DNA from: a virus
UHGV virus genome: UHGV-0236124
DNA: 33,147 nt
Reading direction: 5' to 3' (one strand)
A model generated the notes under the pieces. That model searched no databases. It saw only the letters and a program-made list of their open reading frames with translations, and was not told the DNA's origin. Below, in pieces: positions 4,553 to 26,771 of this stretch; positions within the stretch are counted from its first letter, which is position 1, and each line of letters starts with the position of its first letter. Position numbers and translations under genes: made by a program.

Positions 4553-4915
4553 TTAATGACCTGCTGCGCGGAGTTTTCCGTCAGGTTCACCGGCAAGAGT
4601 CAGTAATTGTCCCTGGTCTTCCTGCAGAATAGTCAGGCGACCACCGCGATTGACATACATCGGCGTTTCGGTGGTGTCTTCTTCGGAAATTTTCCCGCGG
4701 TTAGTCGGGCGAACATATGAGAGTTTGTGTTTGATTTTCACACGGTTCTCATCAAATGGTTCGATTTCCAGGTTGAGTGAGACCTTACCTTTGGTTTTCG
4801 TGTTCATCACACCGGAAGCGACTTCACTGAGAACTGCGCCGATTTTGGTTTCAAATACGCCGCCGTCCAGCTCCCCAATAAATGCCTGCACATCAGTACT
4901 GCGTTCGCTAGCCAT
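4553..4915 (-). CDS. YfdP-like hypothetical protein (120 aa)
   Basis: Start moved to internal ATG (MASERSTDV...) which is preceded by AGGAGCAGCAAA; the longer ORF to 5101 has no RBS and runs into the GC-rich leader. Confidence 0.5.
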   Translation of the reverse strand: MASERSTDVQAFIGELDGGVFETKIGAVLSEVASGVMNTKTKGKVSLNLEIEPFDENRVKIKHKLSYVRPTNRGKISEEDTTETPMYVNRGGRLTILQEDQGQLLTLAGEPDGKLRAAGH

Positions 4916-5524
4916 TTTGCTGCTCCTAATCATATCGACCCTGCAAGGTCGGTTGGTTTCTCCACAAAACAGAGAAGAACACCTGCGGTGGCAGCCGCCC
5001 GGATGGATTTGGTTATGAGCCCGTCGTCCGGTGATGCTCTTCTCTGTTTTGTAAAAAGAGCGGTACCAGCCGGAAGCAAGTGTACAAACTGGTACCGCCA
5101 AAGCAGTGGCTGTTGTGGTGACCGGTGCTGATCTCCGGCTTGCGGTTATTTCAGACTCTCACGGGCGTTTAATTGCCCCGCCGAACAGCTCTTTTCCGCA
5201 TTAGCTGCAATGTCTTTCGCGCATCAGCCTGCGCATTCACCACAACGCTGAGAGCACTTAGCCAGTTACGGCACCACACTTTGTCGCGGTTCCATAAATG
5301 TCCTCATCGTTGCACCCTGGTCTCTTCCCAGGCGTCAAACCGAATCGCCACGCTGGTTAGGCGTCTTATCAGCATCATCATTGACTTGCACATTCCGGCT
5401 ACCTGGTTTGTTTGCCCGAGCAAGGAGTGGATTGTCCCCTTTAACGTCCCCAGACCGCTAACGACGCATGTGCCATACGCCGTGTTACAACCAAATTTTG
5501 TTTAATCTTGCCTGTGCTGTGTTT

Positions 5525-5553
5525 CTTTTAGATACATTATGTATCCCAAAGGT
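5525..5553 (-). promoter_or_regulatory. pL-like leftward early promoter candidate with overlapping operator-like site
   Basis: Minus strand reads TTGACA-17 nt-ATAATG; imperfect operator atgtatc-ccaaa-ggtacat (5529-5547) has the same architecture as the OR palindrome. Confidence 0.4.
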
Positions 5554-5555
5554 AC

Positions 5556-5580
5556 ATTGTCAAGTATAAAAAAACCTGCC
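5556..5580 (-). terminator. terminator downstream of the repressor gene
   Basis: aacctgc-cgaa-gcaggtt hairpin with T-run on the minus strand (plus-strand aaaaaaa at 5556-5562). Confidence 0.5.
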
Positions 5581-5601
5581 GAAGCAGGTTATAAATATTG
5601 A

Positions 5602-6276
5602 TTAGGCCTTTATTATGTATCTTCTTGGTTTTCCTGAGAAAATCACTGTACCAATTATAGAGCAATTACCGTTAATCTTAATGTAAGGCTCAGGCCAGTT
5701 TGGGTTTAATGCTTTGAGATAACGCTGTGTTCCATCTTCTATCAACCGCTTGAAGGTGGTTTCGCCTGTATCGTGCATCAATGCAATAACGTCGTCACCG
5801 TGGCAGGCAGGGACTTCAGGATCAACAAAAATCATGTCTCCCGGGCGGTACTCATCAATCATTGAATCACCAATCACCCGCAAGATATAAGTCATTTCGC
5901 CACAGGGTACAGGGCAGGGATAAGTTTCTGCTGTGCTCAAATCAACCTCAGAATAGCCAACTTCTTTCCATGCTCCGGCCTGTACCCATGATATGACAGG
6001 GACTAACGTTATTTGTTTGTTAGTGATTGAAACGTCAGTTTTTTTTGTGATGTTCGTTGTCTGGTGTTCTTGATCAAGCCATCCGACAGGCAGGTCGAAA
6101 CATTTTTCGATGTGCCGTGCCATGCTGTCACCGATATTTTTAGTTGCACCATCTCCCATAAACCTGCTGGTCTGGGTTGGCTCGCGATCAATCATGGTGG
6201 CAAAGGAAGAATTCCCGCCAACACCATCTCTCAGTTTTCTGGCGTTAGACCGCCGGATGTCATGGACTGTTTTCAT
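5602..6276 (-). CDS. CI-like phage repressor (HTH plus S24 LexA-like peptidase domain)
   Basis: 224 aa; N-terminal HTH region and C-terminal ...ILRVIGDSMIDEYRPGDMIFVDPE... typical of S24 autocleaving repressors; divergent from the cro-like gene. Confidence 0.85.
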   Translation of the reverse strand: MKTVHDIRRSNARKLRDGVGGNSSFATMIDREPTQTSRFMGDGATKNIGDSMARHIEKCFDLPVGWLDQEHQTTNITKKTDVSITNKQITLVPVISWVQAGAWKEVGYSEVDLSTAETYPCPVPCGEMTYILRVIGDSMIDEYRPGDMIFVDPEVPACHGDDVIALMHDTGETTFKRLIEDGTQRYLKALNPNWPEPYIKINGNCSIIGTVIFSGKPRRYIIKA

Positions 6277-6292
6277 AAAGAAATTAAAACCT

Positions 6293-6311
6293 TTGTACCG
6301 ATAAGGTACAA
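6293..6311. promoter_or_regulatory. operator: perfect palindrome TTGTACC-GATAA-GGTACAA
   Basis: Read directly in the cI-cro intergenic region; related imperfect copies at 6343-6361 and 5529-5547. Confidence 0.55.
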
Positions 6312-6316
6312 GTATC

Positions 6317-6344
6317 TTGAAGGTTCATCTCAATCATGTAATAT
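6317..6344 (+). promoter_or_regulatory. pR-like promoter candidate
   Basis: TTGAAG-16 nt-TAATAT about 22 nt upstream of the cro-like ATG. Confidence 0.45.
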
Positions 6345-6366
6345 GTATACCGGAGGTACATATTGT

Positions 6367-6567
6367 ATGAAAGCGTATTGGGACTCTTTAACCAAAGAAC
6401 AGCAGGGTGAGTTGGCCGGAAAAGTTGGCTCAACACCAGGCTACTTACGGCTGGTTTTCAATGGTTATAAAAAAGCCAGTTTTGTGCTGGCTAAAAAACT
6501 TGAGCAATGCACGTCAGGTGCAATTACGAAATCTGACTTAAGACCGGATATCTATCCGAAAGATTAA
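6367..6567 (+). CDS. Cro-like / YdaS-family small HTH regulator
   Basis: 66 aa from internal ATG with GGAGG upstream; MKAYWDSLTKEQQGELAGKVGSTPGYLRLVFNG... resembles YdaS/Cro-type proteins; divergent from the repressor. Confidence 0.7.
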   Translation: MKAYWDSLTKEQQGELAGKVGSTPGYLRLVFNGYKKASFVLAKKLEQCTSGAITKSDLRPDIYPKD

Positions 6568-6598
6568 CAGAACACCTTCAATTTTTAACCACAGAACG

Positions 6599-7162
6599 AT
6601 GAGGCTAACCGTGGGTAAGCATCACTGGAAAGTAGAAAAACAGCCTGAGTGGTACGTGAAAGCTGTCAGAAAAACTATCGCGGCGTTGCCGGGGGGTTAC
6701 GCTGAAGCTGCTGAGTGGCTGGATGTAACAGAGAACGCTTTATTCAACCGCCTTCGTGCAGATGGCGATCAGATTTTCCCGCTGGGATGGGCAATGGTTT
6801 TACAGCGCGCGGCTGGCACTCACTACATTGCGGATGCTGTCGCACAGTCTGCTGGTGGGGTGTTCGTATCGCTTCCTGAAATTGAGGAAGTAGAGAACGC
6901 CGATATAAACCAGCGCCTGCTGGAAGTCATCGAACAGATCGGGAGTTACTCAAAGCAGATTCGTTCGGCAATCGAAGATGGGGTAGTGGAGCCACACGAG
7001 CAGACAGCAATTAATGATGAGTTGTATCTGTCAATTTCGAAGCTCCAGGAGCATGCAGCACTGGTCTACAAAATCTTTTGCGCTCCAGAAAAGAGTGACG
7101 CCCGCGAGTGTGCAGCTCCGGGCGTCGTGGCGTTTTGTGTCTGTGGAGAAACTAACGCATGA
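6599..7162 (+). CDS. YdaT-like (CII-position) regulator-domain protein
   Basis: 187 aa immediately after the cro-like gene; sequence resembles the YdaT family as I recall it; stop overlaps next start. Confidence 0.55.
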   Translation: MRLTVGKHHWKVEKQPEWYVKAVRKTIAALPGGYAEAAEWLDVTENALFNRLRADGDQIFPLGWAMVLQRAAGTHYIADAVAQSAGGVFVSLPEIEEVENADINQRLLEVIEQIGSYSKQIRSAIEDGVVEPHEQTAINDELYLSISKLQEHAALVYKIFCAPEKSDARECAAPGVVAFCVCGETNA

Positions 7163-7995
7163 ACAGTTTAACGGCAAATAACCGTTTGTCGCAACAGCTG
7201 GTGGTCAGCGTCGCTGAACACCTGTTGTTACGGCATGAATGCAGATTACCAAATCTCCTGGCTGTAAGTAACCACAGAGAACTTTACCTGACTGTGGGGG
7301 GCGAGTTGTGCAGGAACTTAACCGCTGGTTTCGTGACGGAAGAGGACTTTATGTTCATGTTATTCGTTGGGAGCCAGAAACACAGCGCGTTATCTATCTT
7401 CGCAAAGACTACCCGCATGAGTGCTTTAGTCCTTTGTGGAAATTCAGGCGTGATTTTGTTGAGTGTGAAGGACCACCAGCACATTGATTCTGCCATTCCG
7501 GGACGTTACACTGTTCAGGCACCTTATAAAGCGGGTGCTGGGATTGGCGTCCTGGAAATGTTATCGGCGATATATGACGCGCCAGCGTCTTTTTTATCGT
7601 CTGCGTCTGTGCACACCCAAATTATGGTGGGCTGGACGGGGGCACCGAAAGGTGCGCCGGTTTCCGATAACGCCGGTTACGCCAACCCCGTTCAGTTCAC
7701 CACCAGCGAAATTGGCGTTTCCGGTGGTGAAGGTAATTCACTGTTATCGGAGGCTGCCATCATGGCTACTGTCCCAGCCCTCACTCGTCTGAATGATGAA
7801 GACTTACATAAACTCAGTTATGTAACAACTGCACTACGTGCTCTGCGCAAGGTAACTCTTTCGGATCCGCAGGCGCATCAGGTTTTGGTAGAAACCCTTC
7901 TTAACTTGCAGGCTGAACGTATTCGTCTGGCGGATAAGGCTAATTTTCATATTCACCGTCTCCTGAATATCAGCGGAGGGCATCGTCATGCTTAA
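7159..7995 (+). CDS. hypothetical early-operon protein
   Basis: 278 aa; ATGA overlap with upstream gene and 8-nt overlap with downstream gene indicate translational coupling; no recognisable family. Confidence 0.45.
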   Translation: MNSLTANNRLSQQLVVSVAEHLLLRHECRLPNLLAVSNHRELYLTVGGELCRNLTAGFVTEEDFMFMLFVGSQKHSALSIFAKTTRMSALVLCGNSGVILLSVKDHQHIDSAIPGRYTVQAPYKAGAGIGVLEMLSAIYDAPASFLSSASVHTQIMVGWTGAPKGAPVSDNAGYANPVQFTTSEIGVSGGEGNSLLSEAAIMATVPALTRLNDEDLHKLSYVTTALRALRKVTLSDPQAHQVLVETLLNLQAERIRLADKANFHIHRLLNISGGHRHA

Positions 7996-26043: not shown

Positions 26044-26433
26044 ATGATGTTTCTGAAACAGGGCACGTTTAATTATGAAAAGCAGTCCGTGGTGCTCAGT
26101 GAGCTGTCCGGGCTGCAGAGAATTGAATATCTGGCGTTTGTTCAGCAGCGAACGGCAAAGTTTGATGCCGAAGAGGGAGAACTGCCGGAGGCTGAACGAC
26201 AGATTGCTTTTCTGCGGATGGGGATGGATATCAATGCCTGGCTGGTTTCCCGCTCACTGTGGAATGCGGAACAGTCTCAGGATGTTGAGACGCTTTGCGC
26301 ATCCGTTATTACAACATGGTCGTATGATGCCCTGGGAGCGGGGGCGGAGATGGTTCTGTCGCTGAGCGGTATGGGAGTCATTGAGAATGCCGGGGATTTG
26401 GAGCATGAGGTGCTGACGCCGGAAAAGTCCTGA
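26044..26433 (+). CDS. tail assembly chaperone G-like
   Basis: MMFLKQGTFNYEKQSVVLSELSGLQRIEYLAF resembles lambda G; terminates just after the slippery site. Confidence 0.8.
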   Translation: MMFLKQGTFNYEKQSVVLSELSGLQRIEYLAFVQQRTAKFDAEEGELPEAERQIAFLRMGMDINAWLVSRSLWNAEQSQDVETLCASVITTWSYDALGAGAEMVLSLSGMGVIENAGDLEHEVLTPEKS

Positions 26434-26771
26434 CGCGGGAAATGCAGTTTGTCATGCGGCTTGCCCGGGAGTTCCGGCGGGCAGACTGGCGGCGGATGCT
26501 GTCGGAAATGTCGGCCACTGAGCTTGGTGAGTGGGGCGATTATTTCCGGATGCAGAGCTTCAGTGATGTGTGGATGGATGCGCAGTTTGCCTCGCTGAAG
26601 GCATTGATCGTGAGAATGGTGTCCGGTAGCAGTGATGCTGCGGTGGCTGATTTCAGCCTTTTACCGGAAGAGAACGGGATACCGGAGCGAACGGACGAAG
26701 AACTGATGCATCTTGGGGAAGGTATTTCCGGAGGTGTGCGTTATGGACCAGATAGCCAACCTGGTCATTGA
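26044..26771 (+). CDS. tail assembly chaperone GT fusion via programmed -1 frameshift
   Basis: T frame (26442..26771 in the ORF track) is -1 relative to G and open back to 26409; slippery G GAA AAG at 26421-26427 at the end of G. Confidence 0.6.
26421..26427 (+). other. -1 ribosomal frameshift slippery site (G GAA AAG)
   Basis: A-site AAG to AAA re-pairing is possible; lambda uses G GGA AAG at the equivalent position. Confidence 0.5.

Follow-up and report, generated by a model that had tools for sequence, protein, structure and literature searches.

The 33,147-nucleotide stretch of the viral genome UHGV-0236124 analyzed here (hereafter referred to as the window) contains a cI-like gene on the minus strand and a cro-like gene on the plus strand, which diverge across a 90-bp gap (6277–6366) carrying a perfect palindrome. 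This locus raises the question of whether the palindrome and its imperfect relatives are the operators of the repressor or some other element, and of how they are arranged with respect to the early promoters. The locus is very probably the early control region of a lambdoid prophage of the e14/SfV immunity type, in which 17-bp repeats would serve as the operators of a lambda-type switch. This is an ordinary lambdoid operator set, in a prophage immunity module that is very common in E. coli and was already annotated. Added here are a corrected map of five sites, a consensus for the 17-bp core, a predicted promoter geometry and a cross-genus footprint. The resulting map (five 17-bp sites, three promoters and the consensus TGTACC-N5-GGTACA) is cleaner than those before it and carries little weight as a discovery. 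It may be of use for predicting superinfection immunity groups among phages of the SfV, cdtI and Stx2c types, for interpreting the K-12 “YmfT” expression module and for designing binding experiments on YmfK and YmfT, the likely controllers of the SOS-inducible division inhibitor YmfM.

Genes and known relatives of the immunity module

The original prediction described 6277–6366 as a cI-cro switch region, and the flanking genes, encoding an S24 repressor on one side and a small helix-turn-helix Cro protein on the other, bear this out. The repressor belongs to PHROG 4 (transcriptional repressor); its residues 93–212 match the Pfam family Peptidase_S24 (E=1.4e-26), and its C-terminal domain aligned with lambda cI in a search of the PDB (E=1.7e-9). 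Ala100-Gly101, Ser138 (in GDSM) and Lys176 (in FKRL) were read from the sequence and aligned to lambda cI; with this Ala-Gly site and Ser/Lys dyad, the protein would be capable of LexA-like self-cleavage. When a profile of the N-terminal 92 residues was compared with the PDB, residues 1–76 matched 5D50 (E=3.9e-5), and the phage CI structure 7NKV was a weaker match. Among solved structures, the 5D50 protein (Rep of Salmonella phage SPC32H) comes closest to the N-terminal DNA-binding domain of the repressor, with a similarity that is weak and limited to the N-terminus. It is inactivated by an antirepressor, whereas the repressor of the window has a full S24 self-cleavage domain. The Cro protein belongs to PHROG 35 (transcriptional repressor, E=3e-15), and its Pfam matches, to YdaS_toxin and HTH_3, were below the threshold. 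The motifs PTQ-x-SR of the repressor and GYLRL-x-F-x-G of Cro, predicted to be the recognition helices on the analogy of other helix-turn-helix repressors, were kept in every full-length sequence of the cross-genus set described below.

The module has close relatives in well-known elements. The repressor is identical to K-12 YmfK (CohE) at 221 of 224 residues (99%), and Cro to K-12 YmfT (CroE) at 65 of 66 (98%). The 1.1-kb module is 95–98% identical in cdtI, Ayreon, 2H10, SfV, SfIV and Stx2c-converting phages, and alignments placed the same operator half-sites at the same positions in e14, SfV and Ayreon. In e14 of MG1655, the DNA of the module is 96% identical over 900 bp, and the operator half-sites differ at only two positions, site C having TGTACA rather than TGTATA and the right half of OL2 GGTACA rather than GATACA; the spacer of site A is GTTAA in e14 and GATAA in the window. 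The module was found in 1324 of 5426 complete E. coli genomes (about a quarter), and the RefSeq gene names in the matching genomes are ymfK and ymfT.

The operator region has been annotated since 2002, in the GenBank record of SfV (U82619), the “putative operator region” of which (26377–26445, 69 bp) corresponds, counting from the cI start codon, to 6293–6361 of the window, the very interval singled out in the original prediction. Full-text searches of the literature, covering SfV, Stx2c, cdtI and e14, found no experimental mapping of these operators, and the searchable literature yielded no footprint, gel-shift or ChIP evidence of binding for a YmfK-type repressor or a YmfT-type Cro. The gene ymfT is one of the targets of the Reg-Seq preprint, which gives no sites for it. 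In the abstract of the 2004 e14 paper, the binding sites of the repressor and Cro were reportedly identified by similarity to SfV. The cohE gene has been described as encoding a CI-like, SOS-responsive repressor “likely” to control the division inhibitor gene ymfM, and YmfK has been listed as an “SOS-sensitive repressor”; the YmfT regulon, labeled “putative”, is an e14 gene set that becomes active when fur is deleted and when cells are exposed to peroxide stress. The biology of e14, in terms of both the SOS response of cohE and the induction of this gene set, fits the reading of the locus as a switch.

Downstream from cro, the gene at 6599–7162 (+) encodes a clear CII-like regulator (Pfam Phage_CP76, PHROG 101, NCBIfam phage_reg_YmfL); according to the SfIV genome paper, SfV-type phages have no cII. 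The start of the next ORF (7159–7995, +) overlaps the end of this ymfL-like gene, the position occupied by ymfM in e14, and a pairwise comparison showed its first 90 or so residues to be similar to YmfM, the cell-division inhibitor of e14 (E=1e-7, 32% identity over 99 aa). Side by side within this 278-aa ORF, which is labeled “immunity region” in the SfV and Ayreon records, lie Rfam matches above the gathering score to isrK (7519–7595, +; 59 bits) and the C4 antisense RNA (7620–7707, +; 82.8 bits). They may constitute a second immunity layer, based on an antisense RNA of the P1 type, and it may be that only part of the long ORF is a real gene. The sequence CTGTAAGTAACCACAG (7262–7277), some 240 nt upstream of isrK, fits the LexA-box skeleton CTGT-N8-ACAG and may link the isrK/C4 region directly to the SOS response.

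Putative operator sites, predicted promoters and their geometry

A perfect 7-5-7 inverted repeat (TTGTACCGATAAGGTACAA, TTGTACC-GATAA-GGTACAA) is present at 6293–6311, as originally described. The outermost T/A of its 7-mers was not kept across loci, with T, G or C found to the left of site A, and for this reason we define the operator core as a 6-5-6 element of 17 bp, TGTACC-N5-GGTACA. The palindrome alone proves nothing, because about two perfect repeats with 7-bp arms and a 5-nt spacer are expected by chance in 33 kb (4^-7 × 33147). The degenerate pattern TGTAY-N7-RTACA had three exact matches in the window (5540, 6294 and 6344), all at the two early promoter regions, versus 0.06 expected, and none of 100 shuffled sequences reached three. 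As this pattern was derived from the window's own sites, and was therefore circular, a matrix derived exclusively from strong sites in the related prophages of other genera was run over the 33-kb window. The five sites listed in Table 1 took the first five ranks; the next match, at 12738–12754, scored 6.8 bits, which is below the chance level, and was rejected as a further site. The score of OR-B was lower than the mean best score of shuffled windows (9.4 bits); its position, register and conservation argue for a site. A hypothesis-free search for repeats yielded one family (D1), with copies at 5538, 6292, 6309 and 6342 (spacings of 754, 17 and 33), and paired 5520–5537 with 5539–5556, that is, OL2 with OL1, as an inverted repeat (I1).

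These results modify the earlier map. The imperfect copy at the −10 region of pR (ATGTATACCGGAGGTACAT, 6343–6361) is present, but with a core of 17 bp (6-5-6) rather than 19 bp. The copy placed at pL (5529–5547, TAGATACATTATGTATCCC) proved to be an inverted repeat in the opposite, tail-to-tail sense, consisting of the right half of OL2, the −10 hexamer of pL and the left half of OL1; it was absent from the 15 best matrix scores. The true copies at pL are 5539–5557 (core 5540–5556) and a weaker core at 5520–5536, the original coordinates being 10 bp off and in the wrong register. The repeat family is real, but has five members rather than three, with three sites instead of two in OR, where OR-B had been overlooked, and two in OL. 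The locus has the layout expected of a lambdoid switch, with several related, partly two-fold symmetric sites over divergent promoters (three, within 6294–6360) and a further group of operators where early transcription starts leftward (OL1 and OL2 over pL).

Table 1. Genes, putative operators, predicted promoters and terminator of the early control region. Scores are those of the matrix built from prophages of other genera, with the rank in the window.
Feature	Position	Strand	Description	Score (rank)
OL2	5520–5536		TGTTTC-TTTTA-GATACA, weak	12.1 bits (4)
pL	5536–5563	−	TTGACA 5563–5558, 16-nt spacer, CATAAT 5541–5536; 11/12 consensus matches	
OL1	5540–5556		TGTATC-CCAAA-GGTACA	22.4 bits (2)
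Intrinsic terminator after cI	5573–5590	−	7-bp stem and T run; annotated terminator in the SfV and Ayreon records	
cI-like repressor gene	5602–6276	−	ORF, 224 aa; N-terminal helix-turn-helix, C-terminal S24 (LexA/UmuD-type) self-cleaving domain	
Predicted pRM	6283–6311	−	TTGTAC 6311–6306, 17-nt spacer, TTTAAT 6288–6283; poor −35	
OR-A	6294–6310		TGTACC-GATAA-GGTACA	23.0 bits (1)
OR-B	6311–6327		AGTATC-TTGAA-GGTTCA, weak, abuts A	8.7 bits (5)
Predicted pR	6317–6344	+	TTGAAG 6317–6322, 16-nt spacer, TAATAT 6339–6344; start ~6351	
OR-C	6344–6360		TGTATA-CCGGA-GGTACA	18.6 bits (3)
cro-like gene	6367–6567	+	ORF, 66 aa; small helix-turn-helix protein	

The pR-like promoter reported beside the palindrome was found as described, upstream of the cro ATG at 6367. 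It has eight of 12 consensus matches, under the cut-off of a consensus scan; its TTG and its −10 element are kept in 17 related loci, with a constant gap of 16 nt between sites B and C. The pL promoter is invariant in the related loci and, after coordinate conversion, its bases are the same as those of the promoter annotated in the record of phage Ayreon. The minus-strand sequence also suggests a promoter, pRM, for cI. Its −10 block, nnTAAT in the minus-strand reading (aTTa.a when read on the plus strand), is 6 nt away from the ATG of cI in all loci, and there is no ribosome-binding site upstream of this ATG; the predicted transcript therefore begins with the A of the start codon (6276) and would be a leaderless cI mRNA.

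All five sites overlap promoter elements. OR-A has its center at −26 of the predicted pRM, the −35 element of which is provided by the right half of the site. OR-B is centered at −43 of the predicted pRM and at −32 of the predicted pR, the TTG of the pR −35 element falling within its spacer. OR-C, centered at +2 of the predicted pR, begins at the last base of the −10 element, spans the predicted start and includes GGAGG (6352–6356), the ribosome-binding site of cro. OL1 (center at −19 of the predicted pL) fills the spacer between the −35 and −10 elements, and OL2 (center at +2) extends from the last base of the −10 element across the predicted start; OL2 at pL and OR-C at pR therefore have the same geometry. 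The centers of sites A and B, which are contiguous, are 17 bp apart, and those of sites B and C are 33 bp apart.

Two other interpretations of the repeats as sequence elements were considered. A terminator scan lists the palindrome on the minus strand (6311–6293) as a 7-bp stem with three G-C pairs, followed by AGGTTTTAAT, and it might therefore act as an RNA hairpin or intrinsic terminator rather than as a protein-binding site. We give this almost no credence, and reject it: the short stem is rich in A-T pairs, the T-rich tail has not been conserved (other loci have, for example, CAATGTTTAAT), no tail follows the half-sites at the four other places where they are found, and the palindrome is positioned at the promoter of cI rather than at the end of a transcription unit. 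The operators were also rejected as LexA boxes: their spacing differs, and CTGT-N8-ACAG matches the window only at 7262 and 14129 (two matches versus 0.49 expected).

A terminator-like hairpin with a T run was seen on the minus strand inside cro (6474–6492), where it could stop antisense transcription coming from the right. On the other side of the module, about 430 nt (5101–5529, −) separate the predicted start of pL from the first sizeable minus-strand ORF (4553–5101), and contain only tiny ORFs. No N-like antiterminator was recognized near pL, the ORFs 5173–5505 and 4553–5101 having no family match, and an Rfam search of 4900–6700 at a permissive threshold returned only a chance-level match, so that neither the repeats nor the long pL leader are explained by an RNA element.

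Conservation across genera and viral contigs

When one genome was scanned for each species, 16 prophages were found to encode a repressor 73–87% identical to that of the window, in hosts including Atlantibacter, Leclercia, Pseudocitrobacter, Klebsiella, Phytobacter, Enterobacter, Trabulsiella, Pantoea, Kluyvera, Limnobaculum, Rahnella, Edwardsiella and others. The cI-cro alignments of this cross-genus set contained no indels from site A to site C. The pairwise identity of 17 sequences was 0.98 for the half-sites of A and 0.96 for those of OL1, versus 0.36 for the spacers of these two sites and 0.48 for the third positions of cI codons 1–70. Conserved half-sites around a freely drifting center are the signature of an operator for a dimeric helix-turn-helix protein, and the sequences of this putative operator family display it. 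The right half of OL2 was conserved (0.96), its left half poorly so (0.53). The right half of OR-C was invariant across the related loci, and its spacer, which has to accommodate the ribosome-binding site of cro (GGAGG), is held to c.GGA. The register of OR-B was fixed; its spacer keeps TTG because these bases belong to the −35 element of pR, and its right half was GGTTCA in all 18 aligned sequences.

The viral contigs of IMG/VR were scanned with site A and the A/B junction, and at least 120 stretches matched. Among the matches listed, 118 of 120 stretches encoded a member of the repressor family (65–100% identity); of the other two, one ends at the end of its contig and the second (L037), with an unrelated downstream sequence, is probably a chance match. 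Among these matches, 61 distinct viral-contig variants were counted, and in two of them, from two lineages, the right half of OR-B was the consensus GGTACA, which supports the view that OR-B is a true, deliberately weak member of the family. In one uncultured member of the Enterobacteriaceae (L013), an additional well-formed site (TGTACC-AAGTT-GGTTCG) was observed to the left of its OL2 position, and some lineages may have three OL sites.

The conservation of the palindrome in phages with the same repressor was the check proposed with the original prediction; among the matches listed the two occurred together in the 118 stretches mentioned above, and the prediction was therefore not refuted. 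The conservation of the half-sites despite the drift of spacers and synonymous positions, together with this co-occurrence, supports the TGTACC/GGTACA inverted repeats as the putative operator family of the cI-like repressor and, as had been proposed, as its likely operator specificity. The repeats might instead be bound by a protein other than cI or Cro, either the CII-like regulator of the YmfL type encoded just downstream or a host factor, given that the identity of the binding protein is deduced from sequence. This is most improbable: the sites would occlude all three early promoters, which is the layout of a repressor and not of an activator, and they track the repressor family across both genera and viral contigs.

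Comparison with lambda, proposed working of the switch and surroundings

The OR/OL-cI-Cro switch of lambda is the basis for the comparison. The window resembles lambda in its divergent cI and cro genes, in its partly symmetric 17-bp operators, with three in OR and a cluster at pL, in its S24 self-cleaving repressor, in the position of the middle site near −42/−43 of pRM, and in the predicted leaderless cI mRNA. It differs in that its DNA-binding domain has no detectable sequence relation to that of lambda, the only N-terminal matches in the PDB being 5D50 and 7NKV, and in the sequence of its half-sites. The centers of the lambda OR sites are about 23–24 bp apart in both pairs, rather than 17 bp (A/B) and 33 bp (B/C). 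The third site of the window lies over the start of pR and the ribosome-binding site, not over the −10 element and spacer; only two OL sites were seen; and the best palindrome is proximal to pRM.

The analysis establishes the sites with their geometry and cross-genus conservation, the identities of the genes and the cleavage motifs; we infer the actual binding of the sites, the order and cooperativity of their occupancy, the activation of pRM and the transcription start points. A dimer of the cI-like repressor (YmfK/CohE type) would place one helix-turn-helix in each 6-bp half-site, without base-by-base reading of the 5-bp center, and a Cro dimer (YmfT/CroE type) presumably uses the same half-sites. 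In the lysogen, the repressor would shut down pL and pR, the latter serving cro, the ymfL-like regulator and the replication genes, with dimers on B/C and OL1/OL2 blocking pR and pL, respectively; site C would cover both the start of pR and the cro ribosome-binding site. The repressor bound to B would be placed to stimulate pRM, approximately as the lambda repressor bound to OR2 does at PRM. Site A covers the −35 element and spacer of pRM, and its occupation would shut this promoter, allowing the repressor to tune the production of its own leaderless transcript. Following DNA damage, RecA-stimulated self-cleavage at Ala100-Gly101 would remove the repressor, and pR and pL would fire; during lytic growth, Cro on the same sites would shut pRM.

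The lambda-like order of occupancy assumed here may be wrong, because it is the perfect site that covers pRM, which inverts the affinity order of the lambda repressor, and because A and B abut. The sites may thus be operators with a logic unlike that of lambda, in which A is the primary repressor site and negative autoregulation is strong, or in which A and B are filled in alternation or non-cooperatively. In favor of this, no lineage has a better site than A, the centers of the contiguous A and B are 17 bp apart as opposed to 33 bp for B and C, and the weak B has kept GGTTCA throughout the aligned sequences and in 59 of the 61 viral-contig variants among the matches listed. There is also a precedent, as the repressor of phage 933W is reported to bind adjacent sites without cooperativity (PMC3317979). 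Against this, affinities cannot be obtained from sequence, since spacer composition and flanks count too; the center of B at −43 of the predicted pRM is appropriate for activation of the lambda type; and a strong site A is equally well explained by Cro, because the pRM-proximal site of lambda is the preferred Cro site. We therefore consider a departure from lambda logic to be possible, though rather unlikely. The more specific proposal that the e14-type switch is wired differently from that of lambda, with its strongest operator over pRM and fused to a weak B, and with C 33 bp away, is put forward tentatively and with similar doubt; if true, this very common E. coli module would be a distinct, uncharacterized variant of the bistable switch. 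The lambda-type switch remains our preferred reading.

The prophage as a whole is a mosaic. To the left of OL, the DNA of e14 and SfV is unrelated to that of the window, with a mosaic junction near 5510–5516. In SfV (L001), e14 (L027) and many prophages of other genera (L006–L012, L016 and L020), a conserved G+C-rich block of about 60 nt (…GAATCATCCGGTCATTCATACGCCACCGGCGGCTACTTCGTGGGCGTCCTGCCTGT…) directly adjoins OL on its left; the window has an unrelated A+T-rich sequence in its place (approximately 5480–5516). This block would form the beginning of the pL transcript, where it could fold; neither in SfV nor in L008 did it match an Rfam family at the gathering threshold. The best phage matches to positions 1–25000, which included PhiR40_1 and other ECOR13-derived phages, Ayreon, mEp460 and Stx2c phages, covered 45–68% of the query at 96–99% identity. 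Phage mEp460 has the flanks in common with the window but a different immunity cassette, with no more than 53 matching bases in 5450–6600.
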